In this document: piece by piece, positions 19,801 through 42,381 of the stretch
How positions within the stretch are numbered: the first letter of the stretch is position 1
Layout of the letters: the number at the start of each line of letters is the position of its first letter
Source of the DNA: an uncultured bacterium
GTDB taxonomy: Bacteria > Pseudomonadota > Gammaproteobacteria > Burkholderiales > SG8-39
Length of the DNA stretch: 64,000 bases
Reading direction: 5' to 3'
Assembly (NCBI GenBank): GCA_965233125.1
Contig: CBDDRQ010000030.1
Location: 16,419-80,418 of the forward strand
Translations under genes and position numbers: made by a program
The notes under the pieces: generated by a model
The model's input: only the letters and a program-made list of their open reading frames with translations
Databases searched by the model: none
Told to the model about the DNA's origin: nothing

Positions 19801-20240
19801 CGCTGCCAGATCGAGAGCGGCTTACCGTCCTCGCCTGTGATCTCAGTAGGCGCGTAGTCGCCCCAGCGGACGGTCACCATCAGCTCGCGCGCCGCCTTCG
19901 CGACCAAGAAGCTTAGGCCCATCGACGATGGGAAATAGCCCTTCTTCGCTGACTTGCGCTCCTCGCTCGACTCCTCAGCAAGCCCAGCTGTTTCCGGAAC
20001 AACCTCGAAGTCGTCGTCCTCGTCAGCGTCGGCGCTCTTCTCAGCTGGCATGTCCGAGGGAATCAGGAAACCAGTCAGGTACCAGTTCGATGGACGCACC
20101 CAGCCTGGCAACCGCTCCGCCACAAAGGCGTGCCCCGCCCACGGACCGACAAGGTCGAGCCGAAGCGCTTCAATCAATCGCTCGCGGACCTCCAGGGAGG
20201 TGCCGGTTTTCTCGGGATCACCTCGGTTCATGGTCGTCAT
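16833..20240 (-). CDS. drmA: DISARM DrmA (large SF2 helicase)
   Basis: Walker A [14 protein letters not shown], DExH box [14 protein letters not shown], C-terminal lobe [31 protein letters not shown]. 1135 aa. Sits between the methylase and the DUF1998 gene. Confidence 0.85.
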   Translation of the reverse strand: [1135 protein letters not shown]

Positions 20241-23200: not shown

Positions 23201-24220
23201 GCGTAGACGCTCATGAAGGCCGGCGAGGGAGTAATAGCGCAGAAAAGTCTCCTGCTCCGGAAGCATGTCTCGCTCCTCGGCGTAGAGCAGGAACACAAGA
23301 CGCAGGATCACGGTGAGTAGCGCGCGATACACCTCGTCGGGGTGCTCGGCGAGGACCTGCCGCAGCAGCTCTCCCTTCGATGCATCATGTGCCATCTGAA
23401 AACCGCGTAGCAGTTCGTAGAGCGCGTGCAGCACCTGCTCGGCGAGTTTTTCCGAGACCTCGTTCTGGAACTTGCGGCTGTCTGCAAGCAGCGCGGCGAG
23501 CCGCTGGTGGCGTGGCCGCGTAAGCAGGCTCTGCTCCGAGAGAAGGAGCCGCAGCGCACTTACGATTGGCCGCCCCGCGGTCTGAACCATGTCGGCCATG
23601 CGGAAGTCGAGCCAGCCCGAGGACTCGCCGCGCGGCGCCGATACGAGGCGGAGCGCACGGCCGTTTACGAGCAACCCGGCAGGCACACCCGTATGGCGCA
23701 GCAGGCGCTCCATGCTGGAGTGCGGCGAGAGGTAGAGTCGTCCGCCGCCACGACTCTCCTCGTCGAACCCCTCACCGGGGACCACGCGCACGAGGAGCTG
23801 CCAGGATGACGCTCCATTCGGGGGCTCGAGCTCTCGCACGGCGTAGTCGGGCCGCAGTGTCCCCCCCGCATCAGGGAGCGGCAGCTCGAGTTCCGAAGGA
23901 ATCGGGCATTCGGGCGTTCCGGCGTAGCCCTTCGGCGAGAAGCGCCAGCCAAGCACCGTGCTGGCGAAGGCACGGAAATCGGTGATGTGCGCATCGGCAT
24001 GCAGGTCGCTGCCGTAACGTGGCGATGGTTCGCGCACACGATTGGCGATGCCTTCGGCGTCGCCGGCGCATGCGAGCAGGCGCCGCTGCCCTTCGGCGTC
24101 GCGCTGGTCGAGGATGGCTCCTGCGCGCACCAGAGCAGGAGCCGAGACTACGAGGCCTGTGGGTCGGACGAAGCCGAGCCACTCGAGGTGAGAAAGGATC
24201 TGTGGGTCGAGCTTCGCCAC
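20237..24220 (-). CDS. drmMI: DISARM DrmMI (N6-adenine DNA methyltransferase, Eco57I/type IIG-like)
   Basis: SAM motif I VCDPAMGSGAFLVEA and catalytic motif IV IVGNPPFLGG. 1327 aa. GTG start 3 nt after the drmD stop. Confidence 0.85.
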   Translation of the reverse strand: MAKLDPQILSHLEWLGFVRPTGLVVSAPALVRAGAILDQRDAEGQRRLLACAGDAEGIANRVREPSPRYGSDLHADAHITDFRAFASTVLGWRFSPKGYAGTPECPIPSELELPLPDAGGTLRPDYAVRELEPPNGASSWQLLVRVVPGEGFDEESRGGGRLYLSPHSSMERLLRHTGVPAGLLVNGRALRLVSAPRGESSGWLDFRMADMVQTAGRPIVSALRLLLSEQSLLTRPRHQRLAALLADSRKFQNEVSEKLAEQVLHALYELLRGFQMAHDASKGELLRQVLAEHPDEVYRALLTVILRLVFLLYAEERDMLPEQETFLRYYSLAGLHERLREDAALYPDTMDQRFGAWAQLVALFRMVHDGADATGMHLPPRHGVLFDPDRFPFLEGRTTGNARHVHDGIEPPLVPDGTIYRALEKLLVLDGERISYRALDVEQIGSVYETMMGFRLETAKGPSVAVKAQKKQGAPTVLNLEALLAEAGANRAKWIQTHADRKLTDTVKKAVEAAATLEDLHAALVPVIDQAATPDLVPRGAMVLQPSEERRRSGSHYTPRELTEPIVRTTLDPVLARLREDDGRPPRPEAILDLKVCDPAMGSGAFLVEACRYLADALVEAWRAHDARPAIPLDEDEVVFARRLVVQRCLYGVDRNPVAVDLAKMSLWLATLARDHALTFVDHALRHGDSLVGLSRRQIEAFHWEADAPRFQAGLEAMKAREHLAKVTALRQRIQEAGEAVTDQELRDLWDEAQAELSKVRLLGDLVLAAWFQADNLKERDAKRLEFANAVMSGDAEGFRSWLENRRHASPPLTSFHWEIEFTEAFQRDNGGFDCIVGNPPFLGGIGISAALGEQYRDWLLNQYEGANGNADLSAYFFRRSASILRGRGTLGLVATKTIAQGDTRTTGLRWLLQRDFTIYSATTSTRWPGAASVAFCVIHLLAHAIPTVSKLDGKLVPGISSRLLPATDEVDPQRLASNVGLALFGVTTHGAGFVVNEEEYAELVRSDASNAMALESYIGGSDVNTHPHQSSSRYVINFRDMTLEEAQRWPDLLKIVEERVRPERMRLRDDSAAARSRKARWWLFAGQAHGILEARKRMDRVLVTAQVTKHIAVSFQPSHRTFSKELCVFLYDSYAAFALLQSRLHEEWARLLTSSLGDTLRYSASDCFETLPFPLEWSTNEALMAAGEAYDQYRTQLMNDTNQGITKTYNRFHDPNERDSRMQALRGLHAAIDQAALNAYGWADVQVRSDFYAEESSSAAQDEPGVSYRYRWSDDVQAEVLARLLELNAERARAEARAGAAVGKKGRKKAVQSARRDIDNKDDLFL

Positions 24221-24223
24221 GGC

Positions 24224-27200
24224 TCAGTTGCTCTCCGGCCAGAGGTAGACGAGGCCTACCGGCTCGATGCGCCGCGCCTTCACCTCGTAGAAGCTGCGAA
24301 GGCGGGCGGGCTCGTCAGCGAGGTCGCGGTCGAACTGCGCGAGGCGGCCCCTCCACGATCGCACGTCAGCTTCGAGCTGGCGCTTCTCTTCCTCGTCAAA
24401 GCCGAGGGTCAGCTGACGAAAGTCCTGCTTCTCGTACTTTTCCAGCTGCTCGCGGACTCGCTCTCGTTGACGCTCGAGCGTCTCGCGCAGCTCACGCGCT
24501 TCCCGTTCGCCGCGTTCCCCTAGCTTCTGCACTGCCGCGTCCGCCCATTCGGCGGCGCGCGGCTCGAGACTCGGCAGCAGGTCCGCGATATCGCGTGCAG
24601 CCGTTGCCAGTAGTTTCCGCTGAACGACTTCACTAGGAGCGCGGCCACCCGTCTCACTCAGCGAGCGCTCCAGCATTTCAAGCGTCTTCGCTTCAGCCTC
24701 GCGCGCGTACGCCTCGAGCGCTCCCTTGCGCTGGCCAGGCTCGATCCAGCGGGCCGTGACCGGGACGAGTTCCTCGTGCAGCCGCTCCGCGCCGCGGCCA
24801 TACAGCGAGAGTCGTCCGAGCAGGATCACGCGCGGAATCGCGTCCCGAGTCTGCGCGAGACAGGCGCGCGATAGATCCAGGTGGACGAAGCCTTGGGCTC
24901 TGAAGCGCGCGAGCAGGCGCTGGGCAACGCGCTGCTCCAGATGGAGGTGCACGGTATCCTCGGTGAGGATTCCCGCGTCCTCGAAAACGACGGGCCGAAT
25001 CGGCGCCTCTCGACGCCATTCGGCGAGCTTCTGATTGCTCGCGCGTGGTGTACGTAGGGTATCCAGCGTGGCTGCCCAGCTCGGATCGGCGCCGGCGCGT
25101 CGGTCGAGCGACGGAAAGGCATACGCAGGACGCCCGTACACATCTGTCGTCTCAGCGAGCGGCGGGGCGCCGAGAAGCTCGAGCGAGCACGAGAGTGCGT
25201 CGCGGAATGACGCCGGGTCGAAGCCGGTCGCGGAGCGCGATTTGTCGAGTAGGTTACGGCAGCGCTCGATCTGGGCCTCAAGTTCGGCTCGACGTTCACT
25301 GTTTGCCTCGAGTTCCTCCTCGACAACGCGCTTACGCGCAGCGTCGAGGTCGGCGGCTTCGATCTCGTTAGCGAGGCGCTCCGCGTCCCGGTGGCGGATG
25401 CCCTGACCGAGCCGGCGCTCGATGTCGTCGTCGATCACCTTCGAGAGACTGCCCAGCTCTCTCTTAATCGTTTCGGTCTTGCGGATGAGCACTTCGAGAA
25501 CCCGGTCCTCGGTGCGCTGAGGCAACACGAAGTAGTGGCAGCGCACTTCGGGCGCTGGCTGGAGTTTTCGGTCGATGCGGCCGTTGCGCTGCTCGATGCG
25601 CCCTGGGTTCCAGGGAAGATCGAAGTGGAAGAGGTCCGCGCAGTGCGCCTGGAAGTTGAGTCCCTCGCGCGCGGCGTCCGTCGCGAGCAGGATGCGCAAT
25701 GGGTCTTTGCTTGGGTCAGTGTTGAAGCGGCGCTGAATCTCCTTGCGGCGCGTACTGCTGGTCAGGCCATCTATCACCTCTATGCGCTCCTCCGCGCGTT
25801 CAGTGCCCTCGATCGCCTGCTCGAGGATCTGCTTGAGGTGGCGCTTGGTGCCCTCACGATTCTCCGTGAATATGAGGACCCGGCGGTGCAGCCATGCCGG
25901 GGGCTTGCCTTGCGGGCGCTGCCCAAACGGCGGCAGGCCGGGACACAGATGCTCGCGTATCCAGTCGAGGAGGTACCGCGTCTTAGCGTCTGGCAGATGC
26001 CGATTCCGCTCGGCGATTTCCTGCATCCGGTCGAGCAGCACTTTCTCGCGATGCCACAGAGCCTCTGACGTGGAATCGCGCGCCGACCCGGACTCGGCCG
26101 CGCTGGTGATCGCCTCGATTTCCGTCGTCTCCTCGGCCTCGACTTCTTCTAATGACCACGAGGCGCGCTCGTCATCCGCGTCTGGCGCATGTGTGAAGAG
26201 CGCCGCCGATTCAGCACCGGCCTCGGTCGCCGCGGCCGGTCCGCCCTTCTCCCAATGCCGCTCGACCGTCGCGCGGTGGACCTTCAGGCTGCGCGCGAAG
26301 GCTTCAATGGAGGAGAGAAGCCGCTGCTGGAGTCCGACCACGAGCAGACCCGCTGTCGCCTGCGCGCGCTTCGACGTCTTGGCAAAGCGCTCTTCACGTG
26401 CACTGCGGTACTCGTCGAGGAGGCGGGAGAGGGCAAGCTCCGGGGCGTCGGCGGCGAGGCCGTCGATCGGAATGCGGACGATGTGCCGCCGCGGGAAGCC
26501 GCCTTGAACGGCGCGGATGTCTTCCTTGAGGCGCCGCACCATGATTTCCTCGAGGGCCTTCGGCCGTAGTTTCACCCCGCGCGTGAATCGATAGGGATCT
26601 AGGATCTCCATCAGCGTCGAGAAGCTGTTCGAGTGTCCGTTGTGGGGCGTTGCGGACAGGAACAAACGGTGCTCGAAGCGGCCGGCCAGGTCGTGGATCG
26701 CGCGGGTAAATTTGGTCTCGATGCCATAGCGACCGCCGCTGGCCGGCGCCGCATGATGCGCTTCGTCCAGGATGAGCAGACTCCCTGGCAGCAGCGTGCC
26801 CAGCCACTCGCGCAACGGATCGGCGTACGCAGGGTCGATCAGCAGGTTGTGCGAGACCAGGAACCGGCTGTGCGTGCGCCAGGGGTTTATGCCGAACCCG
26901 CGCTCCCGCCGCATCCGCGCGACATACGCGCGATCCAAGATTTCGAACACGAGACCGAAGCGCTCTTCGAGCTCGGCTTTCCACTGCTCAAGCACCGACG
27001 CCGGAGTGGCGACGACTATCGTCTTCGCCTTGCGCCGCAGCAGTAATTCCCGCGCGATGAGACCCGCCTCGATCGTCTTGCCGAGGCCTGTATCGTCGGC
27101 GATAAATAACGCGACGCGCGGCAACCGCAGCGCTTTCCGCAATGGCTCCATCTGATAAGCGTCGATCTTGATTCCCGCACGGAACGGCGACTGGAAGAGG

Positions 27201-27526
27201 TTGGGGTCGGTCGCCGTAACGCAGTTCCAGCGGAGCGTGTGCAGGAAAGCCGCGAACCGACGAGGCGGGTCGAATCCCTTCGTGGCTAGGTCCTTCCAGC
27301 CTTCTTCCTCCACGATGCGACGATCAAGCTCGTACTCCCAGAACACGTCGAGGGCCCGGCCCTGGGCGTCGTCGTCCGCGCAAGCAAGTCGAACGAGCGA
27401 AGATTGGCCCGGCGCGCTCGGCTCCACAACCTCCTCCACAAGCCATCGGCGGGAGCGCAAATGAACCAGCTCCCCGATGCGCGGTGGACGGCTAGGCAAT
27501 GGACCTCTTGCGGGTACCGCGCTCAT
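24224..27526 (-). CDS. drmD: DISARM DrmD (SNF2-family helicase)
   Basis: IADDTGLGKTIEAG, LILDEAHHAAP, DLPWNPGRIEQRNGRIDR. 1100 aa. First gene of the class 1 order. Confidence 0.85.
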   Translation of the reverse strand: MSAVPARGPLPSRPPRIGELVHLRSRRWLVEEVVEPSAPGQSSLVRLACADDDAQGRALDVFWEYELDRRIVEEEGWKDLATKGFDPPRRFAAFLHTLRWNCVTATDPNLFQSPFRAGIKIDAYQMEPLRKALRLPRVALFIADDTGLGKTIEAGLIARELLLRRKAKTIVVATPASVLEQWKAELEERFGLVFEILDRAYVARMRRERGFGINPWRTHSRFLVSHNLLIDPAYADPLREWLGTLLPGSLLILDEAHHAAPASGGRYGIETKFTRAIHDLAGRFEHRLFLSATPHNGHSNSFSTLMEILDPYRFTRGVKLRPKALEEIMVRRLKEDIRAVQGGFPRRHIVRIPIDGLAADAPELALSRLLDEYRSAREERFAKTSKRAQATAGLLVVGLQQRLLSSIEAFARSLKVHRATVERHWEKGGPAAATEAGAESAALFTHAPDADDERASWSLEEVEAEETTEIEAITSAAESGSARDSTSEALWHREKVLLDRMQEIAERNRHLPDAKTRYLLDWIREHLCPGLPPFGQRPQGKPPAWLHRRVLIFTENREGTKRHLKQILEQAIEGTERAEERIEVIDGLTSSTRRKEIQRRFNTDPSKDPLRILLATDAAREGLNFQAHCADLFHFDLPWNPGRIEQRNGRIDRKLQPAPEVRCHYFVLPQRTEDRVLEVLIRKTETIKRELGSLSKVIDDDIERRLGQGIRHRDAERLANEIEAADLDAARKRVVEEELEANSERRAELEAQIERCRNLLDKSRSATGFDPASFRDALSCSLELLGAPPLAETTDVYGRPAYAFPSLDRRAGADPSWAATLDTLRTPRASNQKLAEWRREAPIRPVVFEDAGILTEDTVHLHLEQRVAQRLLARFRAQGFVHLDLSRACLAQTRDAIPRVILLGRLSLYGRGAERLHEELVPVTARWIEPGQRKGALEAYAREAEAKTLEMLERSLSETGGRAPSEVVQRKLLATAARDIADLLPSLEPRAAEWADAAVQKLGERGEREARELRETLERQRERVREQLEKYEKQDFRQLTLGFDEEEKRQLEADVRSWRGRLAQFDRDLADEPARLRSFYEVKARRIEPVGLVYLWPESN

Positions 27527-27590
27527 AGTCGGTAGCCGAATTGGCGCTCCATCTCATCCTTCCCCATAGTTAGAATTTCCGCCCTTAACC

Positions 27591-29459
27591 TCAAAGCTGA
27601 GGCCGGATGCTGTTCAGGTATTCGTGCTTCGTCAGCCCGAAATGATGCAGCAAGGACCTGAAGACGCCAACGCTAACAGGATCTCGCCGCGGAAGCGGAA
27701 AGCCGCGTCCATCTGTCCCTTGCCAGAATTCATGGCTACCCTTACCGCGTGCTGGAATGTGTTGATAACCGAAATGTCGTAGTACACGCTGAGCTTCAGC
27801 GCGCGATGGCGCTGAAAAAAACGCATCGGCCAATAGGCTCCTTCCGACCACCCACGTTGGGATGTATCGGTCCAACAGCTCGAAAGGGAGCGGTCCCTGG
27901 AGGCTACCCTCCAATGGAAGCGGCCGTCCCTTTACCTCTCCAGCCGGATTTCCAGTCGCGATTTGCCGTGCCAAGGTCCTCCACGTAAGCAAATCGCGGC
28001 CTTGTCTCCAGGCGGCGTAACCCTTAGGCGAAAAGTCGAGCCAACTCGCGACGATCTCCAGTACCTGCTGAAAACCTTGGTCGTCCTTAAGTAGACCGTG
28101 TACACCGCCGAAGTGCTCTCCTTGGCCTCTCAACCACTCGAAGGCAACGTAGTTAGCAAGAGCCTCCTCGAGGCACGCGTCACTGAGTTGAAAGGTCTTG
28201 TAAACCCCCTCGTGGTAGTTGCGGTAGCGGCCCCGAAGCACCTGAAGCTCGACATAAGTCGAGCATGCCTCTGCGCGGGCATGAAAGAGTTCATGACGCA
28301 GAACTAGCCCGAGCGAGACATGTACTCCCAGATGCAGCGGCCTGTAACTAAGGTGGCCCAAGTCTGAGGCGAATCCGCATGCCAGATCCAAAAGCCGATC
28401 AGCATGCAGGTATATCCCCCAGCTCGAGTCGTCGTAGCTGTGGAACGACTGATACCAGCCCACCGCCTCGAAGCCATCGGCCTTGACCACGCTTTTAGCG
28501 CGTCTGCCTCGTTCTTCCAGCTCATCGCGCGGCAACTCGATTTGCAGGTCTTCGAGTTGATTTCGCAGGGAGTCATGATCAAGAGCGCCGGTTTCCGGTG
28601 CAGTTGGCTGCAATGTGCCGGAACGATCCGGCGGCGTAACGCCAGCCAATCGTGGCCGGGCGAAAGCGCGCGGCACGGCGCGCTCTGCTGCAGCCTTGAG
28701 CTCTGACACAGTAGGTAAAGGACCGCGAGGTGTCCACGTGACAAGAGCGACCGACTTGTCCTGATCGCTCCGGAGGCGAAAGAGGTTATAGTTGCCGTCG
28801 CCGGCGGGTTGTATGGCGCTTGCTTCGAGCGCCTTTCTCAACGCCGTCTCGGGCGCTCGCTTCCTGGATTCCACCCATAAAGCGGGCGGAAAGCAGCCCT
28901 TGAGTTCTCGAGCGACAGGCGTGTTCGGAGCACGCTTGCCGTAGATAGGCTGCGTTTTCCCCATGATCTCCCGGACCGATTGCGGCGACGATTCGATCTG
29001 CCGCTTTTCAGCCGCGCGCTCCTCTTCCCATGATTTGTAGCGCTCCTCATACGCCTGCCAGATCTCGGCAGCCTTCTTGAGGGCACTAAGACAATCAGAA
29101 CCCAATATCCCCCTGCGTTGCTGCTCGCTGATAAGCAAGCACAACTTCTGCGAGTCCGGCAGCTCGTAGGCGCCATGCAGGAATATGTACGAAGCATTGC
29201 CCGGAATGCCGCCTAAGAGGCCCGAGGCGAGAGCGCGATAGATGGCAGCATCGAGCTCCCCTCCCAAGGCCGTAATCATCTTTGCATGCTCTTTGAGAGC
29301 GGGCGCCGTATGCCGGAGGCCCTGCGGCATGACCTGGATGTGTTGGTGAGTCGCGAGGAATTGAACTACGTGCAAGGCATCGAAAGAGACTCGGCAGGCC
29401 ACCATGCCGCCAAGGTCTGCCTCGCTGAACGCAGGCGTTATCCAGGACCGCTTTTCCAT
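27591..29459 (-). CDS. 622-aa protein with an HExxH (putative metallopeptidase-like) motif and a C-terminal HicA-like domain
   Basis: VLRHELFHARAE, followed about 45 residues later by CLEEALANYV. The last ~70 aa, AEAQRVLRHFGYQHIPARGKGSHEFWQGTDGRGFPLPRRDPVSVGVFRSLLHHFGLTKHEY, match the HicA toxin pattern including GSH. Confidence 0.65.
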   Translation of the reverse strand: MEKRSWITPAFSEADLGGMVACRVSFDALHVVQFLATHQHIQVMPQGLRHTAPALKEHAKMITALGGELDAAIYRALASGLLGGIPGNASYIFLHGAYELPDSQKLCLLISEQQRRGILGSDCLSALKKAAEIWQAYEERYKSWEEERAAEKRQIESSPQSVREIMGKTQPIYGKRAPNTPVARELKGCFPPALWVESRKRAPETALRKALEASAIQPAGDGNYNLFRLRSDQDKSVALVTWTPRGPLPTVSELKAAAERAVPRAFARPRLAGVTPPDRSGTLQPTAPETGALDHDSLRNQLEDLQIELPRDELEERGRRAKSVVKADGFEAVGWYQSFHSYDDSSWGIYLHADRLLDLACGFASDLGHLSYRPLHLGVHVSLGLVLRHELFHARAEACSTYVELQVLRGRYRNYHEGVYKTFQLSDACLEEALANYVAFEWLRGQGEHFGGVHGLLKDDQGFQQVLEIVASWLDFSPKGYAAWRQGRDLLTWRTLARQIATGNPAGEVKGRPLPLEGSLQGPLPFELLDRYIPTWVVGRSLLADAFFSAPSRAEAQRVLRHFGYQHIPARGKGSHEFWQGTDGRGFPLPRRDPVSVGVFRSLLHHFGLTKHEYLNSIRPQL

Positions 29460-29475
29460 TCCCTTCCCCGCCTAT

Positions 29476-29748
29476 CTAGTTCTTCCGGATCCGACCGTAG
29501 GCGTGCCCTACGGTTACGACCGTGCCGTCCTGCGCCACCACAGCATAGGAATCGAACAACTCGTGGAAGCGGCGCAGCAGGATGTCCCCTTTTTCGCGCC
29601 GGATACGCTTTCGGCTCTCTTTGTCGAAGAACCTGATGCGTGCTCCATGGTGGTCATGGACGGTAGCCCCGTACTGTAGCAACAGCTCGACGATGAGCGG
29701 GGGAACGCCGCGCTGCTGCATACGGACTCGAGCGTGATCGGAATACAT
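29476..29748 (-). CDS. DUF4258-like small protein (90 aa)
   Basis: MYSDHARVRMQQRGVPPLIVELLL... matches the HA..R..eRgI opening of DUF4258 proteins. Only 10 nt downstream of the preceding gene. Confidence 0.55.
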   Translation of the reverse strand: MYSDHARVRMQQRGVPPLIVELLLQYGATVHDHHGARIRFFDKESRKRIRREKGDILLRRFHELFDSYAVVAQDGTVVTVGHAYGRIRKN

Positions 29749-29758
29749 GGCGACCCGT

Positions 29759-30784
29759 CTATTCGTAGGGGCGCGGGCTGACTCGCCGACCGAAAGGCCT
29801 GCGAACGTGCCGCTGCGCCATGCTTTCGATGCCGGCGTTCGGGAAACCCATGCCGATGTCGACTTCGAGATCAAATCCACAGAAGTGGACAACCCGCCCC
29901 TCGAGGACCAGCGCGGCGCCAACACAGGTCTCGTCCTCCAGGCGCACGTCCTCGCCGAGCCCGAGAGCCGCAAACCGCGCCTGACGTACGGTGGCGAGTC
30001 GAGCCAAGAACCGCTCGGCGTCATTGGCGGTGGGCACCGCATAGACAGGCGTGAAGTAGTCGATGGCGTCGAGCGCGAAGCCGGAAGCGATCTTTTCCAG
30101 ATATGTTGCGCAAGTGCTGTCGGCATCGAACAGCTCGGCACCAACGAAACGGCCGTTGATAGCGAAGAGAGCGCCGACCTGCCCTGGCCGCCACTGCGCG
30201 GCCCTCGCGTACTCGCGGAGGTCACGCTCGCGGCGTTCATAGATGCCAGACATTGCGCCGGTGGTTGAGCGCGAACCGAGCCGGTCGGCCTTTCCGGCGA
30301 GGTCGGCCCAGATCTCCATTTGCTCGGCAGCCGCGACGCCTTGGCAGGCCAGGTTGCGGCTCACCTGAACCGCCTTTTTGGCGCGAAGCCCTGCGTACAA
30401 CGTCTGGCCGGCATCGCGGAATTGAGCAGAGTCGTACCGCCAGCGTCCTTGCTCTACGCAAGAGACGGGAATCGCGATCTCGCTATGCGCGGGCGCAAGG
30501 ATCGTGAGGTTGATTATCCGGTTCTGCTTGCAGCCGATGAGCTGCTCCCCATCGACGAGAAGGAGAGGCTGGTCGACCTTGTTGATCAGCGAGAGCTTTG
30601 GAACGCTTCCGCCCTCCGAGACCTCCTTCACCAGCGCAATGCCAGTCCGGATAGCCTCGGTCAGGACCATGTACCTTGCCGCCCCCGTCGGCTGGCGTGA
30701 GAGGAGCGGAAAAACGGTGAAATTGCGGGCCTTGGACGGCTCGCCGAGCACTACTTGACTTAACGCTTCTTTGATTTCGTTCAT
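29759..30784 (-). CDS. ARPP-1-like (DUF6569-type) protein, function unknown
   Basis: NFTVFPLL near the N-terminus, then LLLVDGEQLIGCKQNRIINLT and PVSCVEQGRW. I recall these as hallmarks of the ARPP-1 family. The family name is from memory only. Confidence 0.5.
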   Translation of the reverse strand: MNEIKEALSQVVLGEPSKARNFTVFPLLSRQPTGAARYMVLTEAIRTGIALVKEVSEGGSVPKLSLINKVDQPLLLVDGEQLIGCKQNRIINLTILAPAHSEIAIPVSCVEQGRWRYDSAQFRDAGQTLYAGLRAKKAVQVSRNLACQGVAAAEQMEIWADLAGKADRLGSRSTTGAMSGIYERRERDLREYARAAQWRPGQVGALFAINGRFVGAELFDADSTCATYLEKIASGFALDAIDYFTPVYAVPTANDAERFLARLATVRQARFAALGLGEDVRLEDETCVGAALVLEGRVVHFCGFDLEVDIGMGFPNAGIESMAQRHVRRPFGRRVSPRPYE

Positions 30785-30868
30785 GGCCTCACCCAGTTCG
30801 TTGGCAACTGACGCTTCCGTCGCTTCCGGGTAAGACGAGTCGGGCCTTGGCGTTTATTACAACCCGAC

Positions 30869-32206
30869 CTACTTATTGTTCTGCCCCCTATCAGCAAGGT
30901 ATGCGTCCAGGGACGCGCGGGCGCTCACCAAGGGACCGCGTCGTACTGGCGCAAGGCGGGTACGGAGGTCTTGAAGCACATCGAGACCGAGCCGGTCGAG
31001 CAGTGTGTTGTCCAGGGTCGGAAAGTCCTGCTGATAAAAGAATATCGGCCGCGTCTTGTCCCGCGCTGCCGCCTTTAATTGCTCCTCGGGACTGAGAGTC
31101 CTGAACTGCGCCAACACTTCTTCCCTGTTTTTTTCGTTCGCAGCGCGGTGGACCTTACGCTCCTCAGTTTCCCTGCTCCGCTTTTCCTTCAATGCTGCGT
31201 CTTCCGCGGTCCTAATGCGTGCGCGCCTTGCTCGGGGTGATTCCTCCCTGATGTCCAAGCGTATTTCCCAAGGCTCCGATTCACCAATCCTTATCGTAAG
31301 CCGCTCGCACGCCGGCGCCACCTCGAGCGAAATATTGCCGTGCGCGTCGGTTCTTCCGCTATGGAGCACCGATCCTGTCTCATCGAGCTCCTGAAGTTCG
31401 ACATCGCTGGCCGGACGGGCGTGAATCATGTCGACAGCGCTAAGGTCGAGGTGGAGCCGACCCTGACTAAGCCTGGAAGAAGCTCTCAAAAGGACATCTC
31501 CGGCACGTATGTTTCCAGGATCGACCGATAGTCGCGCAAGGGAACGCTTCGCGGCCGCGGGCACGGACAACGCGGCAAACAGAGATTTCGCGTCACGTGC
31601 AGGCGCCGACTCCGAAGCTGAACCTAAGGGGCGAAGATCGGCGTAAAAGGCAAGGTCTTTCGATGGCGATTCGTATGCAGGTCCACTTGATTCAGCCACT
31701 GTCCCCATGCGCAATAGGTCCCTCAATGTTTCGCCCTGTTGTTCCAAATCGCCCTTGCGCGGGCGGAATGCCGCCGTTACCGAATCGAACGCCTTCTGCA
31801 GAACAAGCGCACCGAGGCTGCGCTTCGGCAGCATACGTGGACCTGTCTTCGCGATGCGTTCGAGCAAGACCTTCGAGGGTGACAGTTGCTCGTGCACATG
31901 AAGGAACTTTGCGAAGCATTGATCGCATCGTTGCAGATGTTCGTGCGCAGCGAAGAAGGCATTGGGGTCCGCATCAGCACCTTCGTAAGCAGATGCGTGG
32001 TAGCGGTCAATGGCGCTATCGGGAAGGTGCGGCCGTTGCGCCACCCCTCCTTTTTGCATCAACTGGCTTAGGATCAACGAATCGGCGAGCTGCAGTTTGC
32101 ATTGAGAGCACTCCGCAACGTGAACCATCAGAGAAAAGTGCGCCCTCCGTCCACGCCGGATCGACGCGAGCTCGGCCGGGCTGATGTGTTCGGCGCGAAA
32201 GCCCAT
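30869..32206 (-). CDS. putative cytoplasmic zinc-binding anti-sigma factor-like protein
   Basis: Two H-x3-C-x2-C (ZAS) motifs, HVAECSQC and HLQRCDQC, lie in the first ~110 aa. No obvious transmembrane helix. Sits 57 nt downstream of the ECF sigma gene. Confidence 0.5.
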   Translation of the reverse strand: MGFRAEHISPAELASIRRGRRAHFSLMVHVAECSQCKLQLADSLILSQLMQKGGVAQRPHLPDSAIDRYHASAYEGADADPNAFFAAHEHLQRCDQCFAKFLHVHEQLSPSKVLLERIAKTGPRMLPKRSLGALVLQKAFDSVTAAFRPRKGDLEQQGETLRDLLRMGTVAESSGPAYESPSKDLAFYADLRPLGSASESAPARDAKSLFAALSVPAAAKRSLARLSVDPGNIRAGDVLLRASSRLSQGRLHLDLSAVDMIHARPASDVELQELDETGSVLHSGRTDAHGNISLEVAPACERLTIRIGESEPWEIRLDIREESPRARRARIRTAEDAALKEKRSRETEERKVHRAANEKNREEVLAQFRTLSPEEQLKAAARDKTRPIFFYQQDFPTLDNTLLDRLGLDVLQDLRTRLAPVRRGPLVSARASLDAYLADRGQNNK

Positions 32207-32263
32207 GTTCTAGGACCTAAACGTAGGTAGACGGGTCATGGGCGGGCTTTATTACAGGGGGTT

Positions 32264-32848
32264 TCACAGATACTCCATTAAGGCCGGATAAGCCTGGCGG
32301 ATGACCACCGCCAGTCGTTGGCGTGCCCGCAGGACCCGCACGCCGACGTTATTTACCGTGATGTCCAGGCGCCCTGCCGCCTCGGCATAGGTCAATCCGT
32401 CAAGGTCCACAAGTCGGAGTATGTCTTGGTCGGCGGGGGCCAGGCGACTCATCGCCTCGCTCATCATTCGCCGCTGCTCGGCCAGCAACGCTGCGGCGTC
32501 CGGTCCCGGATTGGGGTCGGGGACAAAAACCTCCTCGTCCTCACCTTCGCCATCGATGGTGACGTGGTCCTCGGGCCGGCGGGCGCGCAGGGCGTCGATT
32601 GCGGCATGCCTGGTCATTCGCCTCAGGTAGGCGGCCAAGCTGCCACCCTGCCAGGCTCGAAGCGCACGCTGGTTGTTCTCTAGGAGGCGTTGAAAGACGA
32701 CCTGGGCCAGGTCGTCGGCATCCTCCCTGGAAAGCTGCCTGAACCGCCTGAGCGCGGCGTAAATGACGGTGCCGTAACGGTGGACAAATTCGTTGAACGC
32801 CGCCTCGTCTCCATCGAGGATCCGCTCAACGAGTTCCCCTTCCCCCAT
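32264..32848 (-). CDS. ECF-type RNA polymerase sigma-70 family factor
   Basis: Region 2 (FNEFVHRYGTVIYAALRRF...DADDLAQVVFQRLLEN) and region 4 HTH (LDGLTYAEAAGRLDITVNNVGVRVLRARQRL). 194 aa. Confidence 0.85.
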   Translation of the reverse strand: MGEGELVERILDGDEAAFNEFVHRYGTVIYAALRRFRQLSREDADDLAQVVFQRLLENNQRALRAWQGGSLAAYLRRMTRHAAIDALRARRPEDHVTIDGEGEDEEVFVPDPNPGPDAAALLAEQRRMMSEAMSRLAPADQDILRLVDLDGLTYAEAAGRLDITVNNVGVRVLRARQRLAVVIRQAYPALMEYL

Positions 32849-33422
32849 GCGCCAAAGCTTCGCCTAATCCCGGTTTCCGGGCAAGACAACCCGCGAGCAA
32901 TAGATCACCTCACATGCTCGTCTTCGGGAAAGGCGGGCGTAGAAAAGAACCATATGATCCTCAAGCGGTTGCCGAGAAAATCCACCGGGTGTACGCGGGC
33001 GCGCTGCAGAAAGGACATAGACCTCCGGCGGCTCCCACCGAATAGCTCTGCCTCGGATCAGGCGCTCAGTTGCCGAGATGTGGGGCAGACCAACGAACTC
33101 CTTGAGGATGAGAGCCAGCGGCGCGCCTTCCCGGGAGGGACACGGTTCCGCATCGTCACCTACCGCGCCGTGGCAGAACGGCGGCCCGTCCCAGTCTAAT
33201 CGCCACGCAATGCGTCAGGCGACTTTTCGACCCCCTATGGGCCGCTCCGTGCGCACGAGGGAACCTATCGTTGGGGCTCGATGGGACCCACAAGCCTCAC
33301 AGGGGTAGGCCCCCATCCGGCATACCACCGTTCGCCTTACATACCCACAAGCAGCTCATTGAACTTTCTTCCGTTCAGGAGTGTCTCTGGAGCACAAGTC
33401 AGACCAATGAAATGGAGGGGCA

Positions 33423-33746
33423 ATGGAAATCATCATCGAGACATTCCGCGCCCGAGGGGAACCTTCGAGCAGCGAGATCCGCGCACGGCCGGCCCCAGGT
33501 CAGGGGCTATCCAGAGACCTGCGAGTCGAGTGCTCGAAAAACATGCGCCAAAGCCATCCTGTCGGGACCTTTTTTAAGGTGTGGGCGCAGCTAACCGACA
33601 GACAAGGGACACGCTTTCTTTACTCCAACTGGCGAGATCCCTACAAGGTCCTAACAGCAGCGGAAGCCAAGGCGTTCATAAGGCGTCAATACGCGACCAG
33701 GAGGAAATACCCGAAGGACATGCGCGCTGAAGCGCCACGAGCGTGA
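33423..33746 (+). CDS. hypothetical protein (107 aa)
   Basis: ATG is preceded by GGAGGGG. Composition is plausible. No motif recognised. Confidence 0.45.
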   Translation: MEIIIETFRARGEPSSSEIRARPAPGQGLSRDLRVECSKNMRQSHPVGTFFKVWAQLTDRQGTRFLYSNWRDPYKVLTAAEAKAFIRRQYATRRKYPKDMRAEAPRA

Positions 33747-33752
33747 CCGCAA

Positions 33753-33923
33753 ATGGCGAAGCTTCGTCATACTGCTCCTCCGGTAGATCTAACGCACATC
33801 CAAGCCCCGTACTTGGGACGCCGAGAGAAGGATGTCGTCACCAAGCGCTTGGATAAGTGGGAAGCCGACAAGCTCCGCGAGTTGTACCGGGACCTGTTGC
33901 GGCGCCGAAGCAACCAATCATAG
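33753..33923 (+). CDS. possible small ORF (56 aa), below the ORF-track cut-off
   Basis: Read directly from the DNA: MAKLRHTAPPVDLTHIQAPYLGRREKDVVTKRLDKWEADKLRELYRDLLRRRSNQS. Starts 7 nt after the previous stop. Confidence 0.3.
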   Translation: MAKLRHTAPPVDLTHIQAPYLGRREKDVVTKRLDKWEADKLRELYRDLLRRRSNQS

Positions 33924-34198
33924 GCGTGGCCGACAACGGACCCAGTTGTACGAACGCAACACCGAGTAACTCTGTTGTTACCAACACCATCCCAGCGACC
34001 GCATACAGGCGAGCATCCCCGATGGCTGTATTGTTGGGTATCGGACCTGATATCAGCGTTCCGCCTGCTTTTTCGCTGGTTTCTCGGATCGAGGAAGAAG
34101 TCGGGCAGCCGCGTGCAAAAGCAGGTGAGTTGCTAGACGCACCGATGCCGGATGCGTGGTTGGGAACGAATAACCGGTCTGATTGAGACCCGCCGAAC

Positions 34199-34864
34199 TT
34201 GAGTCGCGCAAACGCTCCGCAAATTGACGGGTCTTATGCGCTCTCCTCGATGGGGGAGCGGGAGCGCCGGCGAGCCGATCTGTACCTGCCACATATGGGG
34301 CCGCTCACCGCGTTCGTGGAAGCGATCAGGGTGGAAAGCGGCTTCGGTACCAAAGTACCACTCTTCGATCCGCGCGACGGCGGCACTGACGCGCAGGCCC
34401 TGTTCTTGTTGGAGGCTCCAGGACCGAAGGCAGTGAAAAGTGGCTTCATATCCCGCGACAACCCTGACCCGTCCGCACAGAACTTTCGTGCTCTTCTAGC
34501 GGACGCTGGAATCCCACGCGAGGCAACGGTGCTGTGGAACATCGTGCCCTGGTACATCGGTACAGGAGTGAAAATTCGGGCCGCGACGAGTCGAGACATC
34601 GAAGCTGGCATCACTTACCTACCGCGTCTGCTGGCGCTGTTACCCGCGATGCGCGCGGTCGTGCTCGTTGGCCGCAAGGCGCAGAAGGCGCACGATGCCG
34701 TTTCCCGCCTTACCGGAGCACGCTTGTTCCGCACGCTGCACCCGAGCAATCAGGTCGTGAGCTGCTGGCCGGAGAGGCTGAAGGAACTCCAGGCAGACCT
34801 ATTGGCTTTGAGTAGCTATCTCGCTTCGCTGCCTGCGTTGCCCTCGGCGGTGGTCCGAGCGTAG
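34199..34864 (+). CDS. uracil-DNA glycosylase superfamily protein
   Basis: Motif-A-like LFLLEAPGP and motif-B-like LHPSNQ at the expected spacing. The track start is TTG, and an ATG alternative lies at 34250. Confidence 0.55.
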   Translation: MSRANAPQIDGSYALSSMGERERRRADLYLPHMGPLTAFVEAIRVESGFGTKVPLFDPRDGGTDAQALFLLEAPGPKAVKSGFISRDNPDPSAQNFRALLADAGIPREATVLWNIVPWYIGTGVKIRAATSRDIEAGITYLPRLLALLPAMRAVVLVGRKAQKAHDAVSRLTGARLFRTLHPSNQVVSCWPERLKELQADLLALSSYLASLPALPSAVVRA

Positions 34865-34912
34865 CGCACGCATAGCTATCTTAAGTGCCTCTACCCTTCG
34901 GTTGGAGGATCA

Positions 34913-36025
34913 ATGGCGCAGCAATTCACACGAACTGCCCTTTACGAACTGGTTTGGTCTCAGCCATTGCGTACGCTAGCAAAAAGCATTGGCGTTTCCG
35001 ATGTGGCAATCGCTAAGAGGTGCCGGGAGGCGAATATTCCACTACCGGGCATCGGCTACTGGGCGAAGAAAGAGGCCGGCAAGAAGGTGTTGCAGGTGAA
35101 TTTGCCGCCGCGCGCACTAGGTCAATCTGACACAGTTAAGTTCGGCAGACGGCACTATTACGAGCGCGGTCCAGCGGACGCAGAGCTGATTGACATGGTG
35201 CTACCCCCGCCGCCGTCGTTCGAGGAAAGCATGGAGGAGGTAAGGGCTCGAGCTCAGGCAATCGCGGTCAAGGTGCGGGCTTCGTCACTTGGCCGGCTGC
35301 ATCCAGCAGCCGCAAAGCTCCTCGAGCAGGATGAAGTTAGGCGAAAGAAGTATGCAGAGTACAAGTCATCCTGGTACGCGCCGATCTTTGACCAGCCACA
35401 CGAGAAGCGTCGGCTCCGGGTTCTGAACAGCATTCTCAACGCGCTCGCTTCAATAGGATGTACGTGTTCGGCGAACGCTAAGGATGGCTACGAGCTTCAC
35501 GTGGTCGTCGGCGACCAACGGCTGAGCTCGTCGCTGGCGCCCAAAGGATTCGACCGCCAAAGGCATTCCCCGGGGAACCTTGCACCAAACAACGGCAAGC
35601 TAATACTGCAGATCCAGTGGTACTGGCCGGCGGAGACAACGACATCGTGGTCGGACGTAGACAGGCCCTTGGAGAAACGCCTTCCCGAGATAGTTACGGG
35701 CCTGTTGGTGGCTGCGGAGTGGGGTTACAGGGAAGGCCTAATGCGAGCGCACAGCTACCTGGTGGAGCGCAAGGCTGAGGCTATTGAGAAGCGGAATCGG
35801 CAGATTGAGGAGGCCGCGCGCCAGGAACGCGAGCGGATAGAACGTGAAGCTAAGAAGCGGTTTGAAGCTCTGCTGTCGGACGTAAGGGCGTGGCGTACTG
35901 CCACAGAGATCCGGGCGTATGTTGAAGTCAGGATGGCTAGCACGCCGCGGGACCAGGGGCTAAACGAGTGGGCTGCTTGGGCGCTAGCGGAGGCTCAACG
36001 GATAGATCCGCTGCAGCGGGCCTGA
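34913..36025 (+). CDS. hypothetical protein (370 aa) with an N-terminal HTH-like segment and a C-terminal coiled coil
   Basis: TALYELVWSQPLRTLAKSIGVSDVAIAKRCREANIPLPGIGYWAKK is a recurrent conserved N-terminus of uncharacterised proteobacterial proteins. The C-terminus is E/R-rich and helical. Confidence 0.55.
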   Translation: MAQQFTRTALYELVWSQPLRTLAKSIGVSDVAIAKRCREANIPLPGIGYWAKKEAGKKVLQVNLPPRALGQSDTVKFGRRHYYERGPADAELIDMVLPPPPSFEESMEEVRARAQAIAVKVRASSLGRLHPAAAKLLEQDEVRRKKYAEYKSSWYAPIFDQPHEKRRLRVLNSILNALASIGCTCSANAKDGYELHVVVGDQRLSSSLAPKGFDRQRHSPGNLAPNNGKLILQIQWYWPAETTTSWSDVDRPLEKRLPEIVTGLLVAAEWGYREGLMRAHSYLVERKAEAIEKRNRQIEEAARQERERIEREAKKRFEALLSDVRAWRTATEIRAYVEVRMASTPRDQGLNEWAAWALAEAQRIDPLQRA

Positions 36026-36238: not shown

Positions 36239-36745
36239 TCAAGCTGCCCGCAGCGCGATCGCCAGCTGCGGCTGTCGCCGCCGCTTGGGACTCCCGGCAA
36301 GCAGCTCGCGGCGGACTTCCATCAGCAGCTTTCCAAGCATGTTCTTGCCGACGCCGTTGACCTCGCCCCAAAGGCGGTTCACGGGACTATCTGTAGTTGC
36401 GGACTCCACTAGGCGGGCGTCGCCTGTGGCAAGGAGGATTTCTCGAAGATCGGAGTGTTGGGAAAACTTGGCTACTAGCACGCCTCGCATCCGCGCAAAT
36501 TTTCTGGTTGACCAACCAGGAGTTACGTCCCAGTAATAAAGGCCGTGCGCCGCCATAGCAAGGAGTGAAGGCGAGGGTGCGGCCATGAGCCAATCGCGCA
36601 CCGCATCCTTCCGTGCCTTTCCGGCTTGGTATGCGTGCTCCGCTGTGGGGTATGCAACCGATTCGAAAAGGATCTCTCGGCGGTAGAGGTTGCTGAACAC
36701 TCCGTAGGGCTTTTCGCTTGCACGGTAGAAGCGGATTTCGTCCAT
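36239..36745 (-). CDS. NADAR (YbiA/DUF1768) family protein
   Basis: FSNLY...FESVAYPTAEHAYQAGK and NRLWGEVNGVGKNMLGKLLMEVR match NADAR signatures. ATG at 36745 is preceded by GGAG. Confidence 0.75.
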   Translation of the reverse strand: MDEIRFYRASEKPYGVFSNLYRREILFESVAYPTAEHAYQAGKARKDAVRDWLMAAPSPSLLAMAAHGLYYWDVTPGWSTRKFARMRGVLVAKFSQHSDLREILLATGDARLVESATTDSPVNRLWGEVNGVGKNMLGKLLMEVRRELLAGSPKRRRQPQLAIALRAA

Positions 36746-36804
36746 GGCGACCGGGGCTCCATATTGCATTGCAGTTAGTATATACTGCGTTGCACATAAT
36801 GCAA
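36746..36804. promoter_or_regulatory. divergent promoter/operator region between the NADAR and HTH genes
   Basis: The minus strand reads TTGCAT-N16-TATACT, a near-consensus sigma-70 promoter upstream of the NADAR gene. A 10-bp palindrome AGTATATACT lies at 36777-36786. There are four TTGCA/TGCAA half-sites at 36764, 36769, 36790 and 36800; the last pair forms an inverted repeat over the HTH gene ATG. Confidence 0.4.
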
Positions 36805-37200
36805 CCACAAGTCACTAAACGGCGCGGGCGCCCCAAGGCAGAGACCAAGGGGGCGAAGGAGGCTATTGCAGCGATCGAGCGCAGGATGGAAGAGAAGAAG
36901 CTCTCGCGCGCAGGGCTAGCGCTGGTCCTGCAGATGAATCCGTCGAGCGTGACACGAGCCCTTAGTCAAGGGGACTCACCAGGGTGGACGCCGTCGCTTA
37001 AGCGCATTTATGGCGTTGCAATAAAGGGGAAAGGCGCGGTCGCAAAGGCGCCGCGGGGCCGAGAAGAGGCAACCCTGCAACGCCTACTGGAGACGCCGCC
37101 TGCGGCTGCAGGCGCCGTGAGGGCGATCCTGAACGATGTCCAGAGGCTGGTAGAGGCGCTCTCCGTCCCGCAGCGAGCAGTGAAACAGAAGCGCCGCTAA
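36799..37200 (+). CDS. putative HTH DNA-binding regulator (133 aa)
   Basis: Segment LSRAGLALVLQMNPSSVTRALSQ resembles an XRE/Cro-type HTH. Basic N-terminus. Divergent from the NADAR gene. Confidence 0.45.
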   Translation: MQPQVTKRRGRPKAETKGAKEAIAAIERRMEEKKLSRAGLALVLQMNPSSVTRALSQGDSPGWTPSLKRIYGVAIKGKGAVAKAPRGREEATLQRLLETPPAAAGAVRAILNDVQRLVEALSVPQRAVKQKRR

Positions 37201-38252
37201 CGACCCGAGCCTCGTCGCACAGGGCGACAGTCCGGACGGCCGCAGAGTCCCTCTTCTGGCAGAGGCAGCGGCGCGGGTTGATGGGGCAGCGCGCTATGGG
37301 CTTGCAGCGAAAACTCGTGCTCGTACATGCCTCCGCGGGCACCCACGAACCCGCAAGCCCAAGAGGCGAGAGTTTGACCGGCTCGCAACGCGTTGGCTAT
37401 CTGGTCATCGGTGACCAATCGAGTGCTCTGATCTTCCTCAACAAGCGCGGAAAGAAAACCAGCGGTACACCAGTCACCGGCGCCACACGTGTCCACCAAC
37501 CGCGCGGCTGGAACTGCGTCCATCTGTCGCCAAGAAGAACTCGCATGGTGGCCTCGAAAGCGCAGTCCCTTCTCGCCTGCCGTCTGTACCTCGATAAAGG
37601 ATAGGCGGCTTCGCAAGGTGTGCTCGAAATCTCCCGGCGAAAAACGATCGACCGAATACTTAAGAACGTCGACCATGGGCAGTGCCTCTGACCAGTATTG
37701 TGAGTCCGATGGAGTCGACGGCTCGTACATGACCAGGACGTCTAAGCCTCGAGCCAACTGCATCAGCTTCAAGGTGCTGGACGATAAGCGATCGACGAAG
37801 AGGACGTCAGGCGTCACGGCACCGAAGCTCTCCTTAGGTAGCCCTTCGTGTCGCTCGCGAAAAAGAAGCTCACCGCAAGCCGGGCACTCGGCAGGGAAGG
37901 AGTGGGTCAGGCGATTTCCGTTCGCGCCTACCACCTGTTGCAGAAAAATGGGAGTTCTAGCCTGCTCAATCGCAAGAAGGTACTCACAATTCACCCCAAT
38001 GCGCTCCAAATCGGCCAACACGCGAGCCCCTGCGACGTCGCGGCCAACAAATCCAATGGCGCTCGAATTCCAGCCCAGGTAGCACAGGATCGCCAGCACG
38101 TTCCCGCAGGTGCCACCGGCATAGACCGCGGCCTCTATGCGTGCGAGGTCACCGGTGACGACATCGAGCGCAATGAGGCCGGCGCCGACTACGGTGGGCT
38201 TCTTCTTGGTGGAAGTTTCCCCTGGGTTGGCGGACTCTTGCTTCGCGACCAT
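37197..38252 (-). CDS. PfkB (ribokinase-like) family sugar/nucleoside kinase
   Basis: N-terminal GAGLIALDVV...YAGGTCGNVLA and the C-terminal catalytic motif VDTCGAGDWCTAGF (DTxGAGD). The ATG at 38252 shares 1 nt with the upstream TAA. Confidence 0.8.
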   Translation of the reverse strand: MVAKQESANPGETSTKKKPTVVGAGLIALDVVTGDLARIEAAVYAGGTCGNVLAILCYLGWNSSAIGFVGRDVAGARVLADLERIGVNCEYLLAIEQARTPIFLQQVVGANGNRLTHSFPAECPACGELLFRERHEGLPKESFGAVTPDVLFVDRLSSSTLKLMQLARGLDVLVMYEPSTPSDSQYWSEALPMVDVLKYSVDRFSPGDFEHTLRSRLSFIEVQTAGEKGLRFRGHHASSSWRQMDAVPAARLVDTCGAGDWCTAGFLSALVEEDQSTRLVTDDQIANALRAGQTLASWACGFVGARGGMYEHEFSLQAHSALPHQPAPLPLPEEGLCGRPDCRPVRRGSGR

Positions 38253-41250: not shown

Positions 41251-41256
41251 ACGAGG

Positions 41257-42378: not shown

Positions 42379-42381
42379 GGC

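Follow-up and report, generated by a model that had tools for sequence, protein, structure and literature searches.

How costly defence systems stay silent and then switch on is an active question, and few types of regulator are known for such switching (BrxR/CapW, CapH/CapP, CapK/CapS and DdvS/DdvA). The question is raised anew by a stretch of 64,000 nucleotides from an uncultured bacterium of the Burkholderiales lineage SG8-39 (assembly GCA_965233125.1, contig CBDDRQ010000030.1, positions 16,419 to 80,418 of the forward strand), which is called the window here. In it, genes for an extracytoplasmic function (ECF) sigma factor, a soluble anti-sigma-like protein with two zinc-binding anti-sigma (ZAS) motifs, an ARPP-1 protein, a DUF4258-like small protein and a 622-aa protein that joins an HExxH motif to a HicA domain lie immediately 5' of a class 1 DISARM system (Table 1). 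An earlier interpretation made from the letters alone, hereafter the sequence-only reading, had taken the five genes for one cassette, a sigma/anti-sigma-gated toxin or abortive-infection module that may also control DISARM. Our comparison of loci indicates that the conserved unit is one of four genes, not five, and we lean slightly towards a transcription switch in which the sigma and anti-sigma proteins drive ARPP-1 and DUF4258, with DISARM reached by read-through.

Gene order, promoter motif and the junction with DISARM

The five open reading frames of the cassette region all lie on the minus strand, exactly at the coordinates of the sequence-only reading, which was also right about the gaps: 57, 84, 10 and 16 nt down the array and then 64 nt to drmD, with DISARM continuing on the same strand through gene junctions that overlap or are 3 nt apart. 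To find cassette loci in other genomes we examined the gene neighbourhoods of the nearest ARPP-1 homologues, L002 and L003 being counted once, as were L171 and L172. Seven further independent loci (L001, L002, L004, L042, L171, L173 and L176) have the order sigma factor, double-ZAS protein, ARPP-1, and six of the seven have a DUF4258-like gene as the fourth. Identities across the cassette loci are 40-66% for ARPP-1 and about 17-43% for the anti-sigma protein. The claim of a five-gene cassette did not survive this comparison, because the HExxH-HicA gene is absent from all seven other loci and its homologues sit in unrelated defence operons.

The intergenic regions of the cassette loci have a motif in common, TGTAAT-N17/18-CGTCT(A/T), while the intergenic sequence around it is unconserved. 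The motif stands 40-80 nt 5' of ARPP-1 (the site P_arpp) in all eight loci, that is, in the window and the seven named above, and it is found in the gap between the sigma and anti-sigma genes (the site P_anti) in six of the eight (the window, L001, L002/L003, L004, L171 and L173, the last with a variant -35 element). The 64-kb window has just two occurrences of the pattern GTAAT-N16-18-CGTCT, one in each of these two gaps on the minus strand (32229-32255 and 30833-30860); 0.11 occurrences are expected by chance. A position weight matrix scan of the window gave scores of 33.1 for P_arpp and 30.2 for P_anti, against a maximum of 19.9 over 20 shuffles; the third-best site (32895, plus strand, 16.4) falls inside the shuffle range and was discarded. 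Among ~170 other ARPP-1 or unrelated loci a relaxed pattern matched only three times (L101, L136 and L152), in no case directly 5' of an ARPP-1 start, and the match in L152 lies inside an unrelated gene.

ECF promoters are bipartite, pairing a -35 element with a -10 element that contains CGT, and they are usually autoregulatory and situated upstream of the sigma gene. From the co-conservation of motif and gene order we infer that the two sites are used as promoters by this sigma factor. The sequence-only reading had proposed a search for an ECF promoter motif upstream of 30784 and of 29459: a conserved motif of ECF type was indeed found 5' of 30784, which strengthens the case for a sigma/anti-sigma-gated unit, and no promoter motif was found 5' of 29459. 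Since the gene order recurs in eight independent loci together with a conserved promoter motif, the arrangement is, on this comparison, far beyond chance.

The cassette adjoins drmD in three of the eight loci (the window, L001 and L004). In L001 and L004 drmD lies directly 3' of the DUF4258 gene, without the 622-aa gene, and L004 continues into drmMI. In L002 a SNF2-NOV_C helicase gene is situated ~2 kb downstream of the cassette, and in L171, L173 and L176 the cassette is followed by unrelated small genes. By DrmD the window is closer to L004 (79% identity) than to L001 (55%), whereas its ARPP-1, DUF4258 and anti-sigma proteins show the opposite preference (66/84/41% for L001 versus 54/70/29% for L004). 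These discordant identities mean that the modules were exchanged, yet the junction between them was kept or re-formed, which argues for selection on the linkage of cassette and DISARM.

Along the minus strand from 32848 to 14264 no sigma-70-like promoter was detected by a simple consensus scan, which may not suit a high-GC host, and no intergenic terminator-like hairpin by a simple scan. The matrix scan shows no site 5' of drmD or of the 622-aa gene, and the idea that either has a sigma-type promoter of its own was rejected. With the cassette abutting drmD in L001 and L004 as well, and with no intervening sigma-type site or intergenic terminator, the suggested link to DISARM expression is plausible. 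A separate observation concerns L004, in which a terminator-like hairpin with a T-run (1853-1874) is situated at the extreme end of the sigma gene, just 5' of P_anti; the anti-sigma gene of that locus may rely mainly on the sigma-dependent promoter.

Table 1. Features of the cassette region and of the adjoining DISARM system; coordinates are those of the window.
Feature	Coordinates	Strand	Remarks
Sigma factor of the sigma-70 family, ECF (group 4), 194 aa	32264-32848	minus	Pfam and TIGR02937 matches
P_anti, candidate promoter, TGTAAT-N17-CGTCTA	32229-32256	minus	sigma/anti-sigma gap; end 22 nt before anti-sigma start codon
Soluble anti-sigma-like protein, 445 aa	30869-32206	minus	double H-x3-C-x2-C (ZAS-like) N-terminal region
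P_arpp, candidate promoter, TGTAAT-N18-CGTCTT	30833-30861	minus	anti-sigma/ARPP-1 gap; end 48 nt before ARPP-1 start codon
ARPP-1 / DUF6569 protein, 341 aa	29759-30784	minus	PF20208; predicted enzyme
DUF4258-like small protein, RelE/ParE BECR superfamily, 90 aa	29476-29748	minus	10 nt 3' of ARPP-1
HExxH metallopeptidase-like protein with C-terminal HicA domain, 622 aa	27591-29459	minus	between cassette and drmD
DISARM, class 1	14264-27526	minus	drmD, drmMI, drmA, drmB and drmC are top PADLOC matches
drmD	24224-27526	minus	PADLOC DrmD 1022 bits
drmMI	20237-24220	minus	PADLOC DrmMI 1270 bits
drmA	16833-20240	minus	PADLOC DrmA 914 bits
drmB	15043-16836	minus	PADLOC DrmB 270 bits
drmC	14264-15046	minus	PADLOC DrmC 255 bits

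Proteins of the conserved unit

The domain assignments of the sequence-only reading hold: those of the ECF sigma factor and of ARPP-1 are strong, and those of DUF4258 and HicA score below the profile cut-offs and are backed by homologues and a fold match. The sigma factor matches TIGR02937 with 90 bits (cut-off 42.9), with Sigma70_r2 at residues 22-91 (E 5e-10) and Sigma70_r4_2 at residues 127-179 (E 4e-13). Its orthologues (33-53% identity) are the first gene of the cassette in L002, L004, L042, L171, L173 and L176, and the succession of sigma gene and ZAS-motif gene, the latter starting 57 nt 3' of the former in the window, is kept in all eight loci.

The anti-sigma-like protein is built, in this order, of the ZAS-like region, a central linker, a beta-sandwich (about residues 248-315) and a C-terminal extension of ~120 residues. 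Both H-x3-C-x2-C motifs are present (H29/C33/C36 and H90/C94/C97), with an additional upstream H7, and the residues invariant in seven aligned homologues (17-43% identity) are H7, H29, C33, C36, H60, T286 and G290. A word-indexed search gave a single homologue; the family became visible when 1.84 billion representative proteins were searched exhaustively with HMMER. The N-terminal region is matched by 52 of them, and 51 of these 52 have the two motifs, at ~residue 28 and ~residues 85-95. The double-ZAS proteins are on this evidence a rare, well-defined family. The maximum 19-residue Kyte-Doolittle mean of the window protein is 0.87 and none of the aligned homologues has a convincing membrane segment, so that the earlier description of two motifs on a protein with no evident membrane anchor stands. 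In a profile comparison the two ZAS halves align over a 13-residue motif only (P 6e-4), and a clean tandem duplication of the halves was for that reason not accepted.

The beta-sandwich at the C-terminal side is common to all the anti-sigma homologues and matches bMG3/CarboxypepD_reg in five of the seven; a PDB sequence search with the window protein gave no match. The ~120-residue extension is common to the three DISARM-linked anti-sigma proteins (the window, L001 and L004). It corresponds to 30869-31250 (residues ~320-445), and consists of a charged coiled coil and an 'LSPEEQ...RGPL' helical domain; the proteins listed for it are P0151, P0153, P0160, P0203 and P0204, and it stands alone in P0203 (118 aa) and follows an unrelated N-terminus in P0204. 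It is an uncharacterised mobile domain. One double-ZAS homologue (L172, 3059-4507) carries an insertion that matches DksA_N and zf-dskA_traR (E 6e-13 and 2e-9), a module by which DksA and TraR bind the secondary channel of RNA polymerase.

ARPP-1 matches PF20208 with 296 bits (cut-off 27, E 4e-88) over profile positions 2-297 of 297. Its invariant residues are Q87, C109, E111, R114 and W115, and Q87 and C109 are invariant in alignments of 36 and of 20 sequences. The AlphaFold2 model (pLDDT 86, pTM 0.86) has no significant relative in PDB or BFVD according to Foldseek, and a PDB sequence search found no match. The definition of ARPP goes back to Iyer et al. (2022), who met it in systems predicted to counter viral ADP-ribosylation; the conserved Cys and Gln were taken as a sign of catalysis and the contexts included ADP-ribosylglycohydrolase (ARG)/phosphatase, HIRAN, WYL and deacetylase genes (PMC9503650). 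A word search of that paper found neither sigma nor DISARM, SNF2 or DUF4258.

A background set came from alignment-based scans of genome and metagenome contigs, the listed matches of which are distant ARPP-1 relatives (identity <= 47%) with few cassette loci among them; a single-protein scan of genome contigs gave no match. Genes adjoining ARPP-1 in this set encode RtcR-like CARF/sigma-54 activators (16 of 142 upstream neighbours), WYL-WCX and MerR proteins and ADP-ribosylglycohydrolases (L036 and L174). Of 164 ARPP-1 loci surveyed, about 14 have an SNF2 helicase or DrmA/DrmB gene within 10 kb, and in L059 ARPP-1 is followed by DrmA and DrmB. On plasmids ARPP-1 is rare, with four weak matches. 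Because ARPP-1 is found repeatedly beside different dedicated stress regulators in other genomes, it probably acts as an effector or processing enzyme that is induced, not as a sensor, and regulators that sense stress may repeatedly have it as their inducible output; with ARPP-1 as an output, the sensing role would be assigned to the anti-sigma protein. The regulators beside ARPP-1 are situated in L095 at 988-3123, in 15 loci similar to it, in L041 at 3-1022, in L098 at 1965-3008 and in L107 at 5057-5581. An operon-like array in L099 (3414-10708) consists of genes for REase-ARP, an AAA ATPase, ARPP-1, a DUF4258-like protein and an SNF2 helicase, and is without a sigma factor.

The small protein of the window scores 19.1 bits against DUF4258 (PF14076), below the cut-off of 25, and 12 of the 16 aligned family members (the window protein and 15 homologues) match this profile, the best with E 1.9e-7. 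The motifs HAxxRMQQRG and TVGHRYRRI are conserved in 16 homologues, and a PDB sequence search gave no match. The gene lies 3' of ARPP-1 in seven of the eight cassette loci (48-84% identity), at a spacing of 3-12 nt. There is no type II antitoxin gene beside it: its upstream partner is the 341-aa ARPP-1, and no RHH, HTH or MqsA-like gene is adjacent.

The inserted gene and the surrounding island

The 622-aa protein belongs to a family of 18 members. Across the 18 homologues H389, F392 and H393 of the HExFH motif are invariant and E390 is nearly so; E404 and EEALA (E431-A435) are also invariant, and GKGSH at 572-576 is nearly invariant. The score against HicA (PF07927) is 20.5 bits, below the cut-off of 27. 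The C-terminal ~70 residues of the protein match 1whz in Foldseek (probability 1.00, target TM 0.73, rmsd 2.2 Å, 31% identity), and in the model this C-terminal domain has a HicA fold with the GSH motif. For the HExxH part Foldseek found no PDB fold match outside the HicA domain, and a profile scan found no match to a peptidase family. No HicB-like gene flanks 27591-29459 or the homologous genes, and neither the 622-aa protein nor ARPP-1 was found among 50,697 phage records.

The homologues of this gene form the 3' end of other defence-type operons, where they follow a DprA-like gene, an S1-P1 nuclease gene or an SbcCD-like pair. They are often beside RepB/ParB and serine recombinase genes and never with a sigma factor or ARPP-1. 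The co-occurrence with ECF sigma factors that the sequence-only reading proposed to test is real for ARPP-1 and DUF4258 and fails for the HicA fusion. Because the homologues sit in unrelated defence operons and the gene is missing from the other cassette loci, we take it, on these comparative grounds, to be an accessory inserted into the gap between DUF4258 and drmD; a short similar sequence, present on either side of the gene and in the corresponding gap of L004, is consistent with such an insertion. One of the homologues is annotated as Myxococcota. In L165 (12418-15763) and L167 (12143-15506) the homologues are convergent with a conserved module in which a serine recombinase gene accompanies two RepB/ParB-like genes, and one particular integrative element may carry the family along.

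The window has a GC content of ~60% over roughly 5-53 kb and of 70-74% in the flanks, and an integrated mobile element appears to carry all of these defence genes. A D5_N primase-like gene (45833-48985, minus strand) and a tyrosine integrase gene (51332-52582, minus strand) are situated at the island edge. There is no tRNA gene within the window, an Rfam scan of 26000-36000 found no RNA element, and PADLOC is without a model for any of the five cassette-region proteins. Between the cassette and a block of genes with PRTase-CE lie a UDG-superfamily gene (34199-34864, plus strand) and a gene with a NADAR domain of ADP-ribose processing (36239-36808, minus strand, E 4.5e-27); the latter fits the ADP-ribose theme proposed for ARPP. 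The block itself (37197-44307, minus strand) contains matches to PfkB kinase, ORC-CDC6-like/STAND NTPase, PRTase-CE and HAD hydrolase, and looks like a further predicted conflict system of the same island. On the other side, a PLD-like protein and a helicase are encoded at 10008-14053 (plus strand), convergent with the end of DISARM; they have weak PADLOC matches to ZacB/ZacC and PDC-M27 and may be an additional defence pair.

A proposed sigma-gated switch, its rivals and known systems

The conserved gene order, the two motifs at fixed positions, the adjoining soluble ZAS protein with its ChrR-like ligand pattern and the abutment on DISARM are the reasons for reading the locus as a switch of ECF type. 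In the resting cell the anti-sigma protein would hold the sigma factor, and a signal would set it free, being received probably via the beta-sandwich and the C-terminal extension or else acting on the zinc sites; the ZAS sites might respond to redox change or lose their zinc, or the beta-sandwich and extension might bind a ligand or a partner. The free sigma factor would then act at the two TGTAAT-N17/18-CGTCT sites, which come from phylogenetic footprinting and are presumed promoters. P_anti, before the anti-sigma gene, would provide negative feedback, and P_arpp, before ARPP-1, would supply ARPP-1 and the RelE/ParE-like DUF4258 protein. The transcript from P_arpp would most likely run on through the 622-aa gene into drmD-drmMI-drmA-drmB-drmC, and the expression of DISARM would be raised together with the cassette's own outputs. 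We hold the sigma-dependent two-promoter regulon with good confidence, judge the chances that read-through into DISARM is physiologically important to be about even, and place far less trust in any specific trigger or in toxin activity.

Several observations weigh against this proposal. Five of the eight loci are without DISARM directly downstream (none in L002, L171, L173 and L176, and the contig ends in L042), so the cassette can function without it. The anti-sigma-like protein of the window does not match zf-HC2 (PF13490) at E <= 1, and only two of its seven homologues do so, weakly (E <= 0.009). In L176 and L042 no P_anti could be made out, and neither a TGTAAT-N17/18-CGTCT site nor another promoter was found for the sigma gene itself. 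A drmD promoter of another type could be present in the 64-nt gap, and L001 has a weak terminator-like hairpin between DUF4258 and drmD. Moreover, all steps beyond the promoter footprint are inferred from sequence.

The sequence-only reading had preferred a self-contained sigma-gated toxin or abortive-infection module, in which DUF4258 (and here HicA) would kill, ARPP-1 would be their sensor or neutraliser and DISARM would be a neighbour with its own promoter. One would argue for it from the cassettes without DISARM in L002, L171, L173 and L176, the hairpin 5' of drmD in L001, the close spacing of ARPP-1 and DUF4258, the conserved GSH motif of HicA and the membership of DUF4258 in the RelE/ParE superfamily, the modules of which have the gene order antitoxin-then-toxin (PMC11980606). 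However, the same source lists the function of DUF4258 as 'Unknown', ~85% of the 164 listed ARPP-1 loci are without a DUF4258 partner, and the HicA gene lies outside the conserved unit. Additionally, drmD adjoins the cassette in three loci despite discordant phylogenies, and in the window no promoter or terminator signal separates the two. Thus we consider such a module rather unlikely, regulation being better supported than toxicity. An infection-sensing unit, in which the double-ZAS protein detects a cue via its beta-sandwich and extension and the sigma factor launches, together with DISARM, a new effector pair made of ARPP-1 as an enzyme of novel fold and DUF4258 as an RNase, is in our judgement unlikely; candidates for the cue are ADP-ribosylation, an intermediate made by DISARM and a modified nucleic acid. 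If it were true, DISARM would be inducible and sigma-programmed, and ARPP-1 would gain its first defined regulatory circuit.

The switch might instead induce repair or detoxification, with ARPP-1 (with or without DUF4258) processing ADP-ribose-type or sugar-linked lesions inflicted by phage, and DISARM co-induced. Such processing of lesions on host nucleic acids or proteins was proposed for ARPP in ARG-centred systems by Iyer et al. (PMC9503650), and the idea draws on the invariance of Q87 and C109, on the ARPP-1 genes beside ADP-ribosylglycohydrolase (L036 and L174), REase-ARP (L099) or RtcR-like RNA-repair regulators, and on the NADAR gene 5.5 kb away. The cassette itself, however, contains no ARG, Macro or phosphatase gene, the activity of ARPP-1 is wholly predicted, and its model has no structural relative in PDB to support any chemistry; we find this explanation quite improbable. 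It is hardly credible, finally, that the five genes are unrelated same-strand neighbours without a functional unit: defence islands do pack unrelated systems tightly, and the 622-aa gene is an independent insertion, but the four-gene synteny in eight loci, the co-varying identities and the shared motif at fixed positions already contradict this for the core.

Several cytoplasmic ZAS anti-sigma factors are known, among them ChrR, RslA and RsrA; ChrR has an upstream His ligand and a separate C-terminal signal-receiving domain (cupin). The protein of the window resembles all three in being soluble and encoded directly after the ECF sigma gene, and resembles ChrR in its H-x3-C-x2-C with an upstream His (H7) and in a separate C-terminal domain that could receive a signal. 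It differs from them in having two motifs in tandem, a beta-sandwich instead of a cupin, and no zf-HC2 match. The 622-aa protein likewise shares with HicAB the HicA fold of its C-terminal 70 residues with the GSH motif kept, whereas hicB is missing, HicA is fused to ~540 residues that include the HExxH motif, and the single gene is appended to defence operons.

Defence islands under a sigma/anti-sigma pair are already known, and so are regulators dedicated to DISARM and encoded 5' of it. The nearest functional analogue is the ECF sigma/anti-sigma pair DdvS/DdvA of Myxococcus xanthus, which governs an island of CBASS and type III-B CRISPR-Cas; DdvA spans the membrane, has a TPR-CHAT sensor of ~900 residues in the periplasm and is set free by regulated proteolysis (PMC11506125). 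An ECF sigma factor with a ZAS-type anti-sigma domain, predicted sigma-dependent promoters for anti-phage genes and a GC-rich host would be common to both cases. In contrast, the soluble protein of the window combines two H-x3-C-x2-C motifs with a beta-sandwich and shows no transmembrane segment and no TPR or CHAT match, and the genes concerned are ARPP-1, DUF4258 and DISARM instead of CBASS and CRISPR.

CapH/CapP and CapW/BrxR regulators precede defence operons including class 1 DISARM, and in Nocardia wallacei vapC and a CapH-CapP fusion, a peptidase-containing regulator, precede drmD (bioRxiv 10.1101/2022.04.27.489752; PMC13373217). The cassette would likewise be a dedicated regulatory module immediately 5' of drmD, and its DUF4258 and HExxH proteins recall the vapC and peptidase regulator of Nocardia. 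However, those regulators are repressor-based (an HTH protein cut by an M78 peptidase, or WYL) and usually divergent, whereas the cassette, with its sigma factor, would be activator-based and is co-oriented. None of the five cassette-region proteins matches Peptidase_M78 or an HTH domain, and a CapP-like identity of the HExxH protein was rejected for want of an M78 match. With the ARG-centred ARPP systems (PMC9503650) the locus shares the invariant Cys and Gln, the setting in conflict islands, helicases, transcription regulators and the idea of an inducible operon, but it has no ARG or phosphatase gene. We found no paper that describes the cassette in the searchable literature, which leaves out most subscription journals, and this agrees with the earlier statement that no defence system of this composition had been described.

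The cassette offers a compact module with a defined sigma factor, a rare soluble two-zinc-motif anti-sigma family and an explicit promoter code, and it places two uncharacterised families, ARPP-1 and DUF4258, in a concrete regulatory setting. Should read-through into drmD prove true, this would be the first sigma-factor-controlled DISARM that we found described in the searchable literature.

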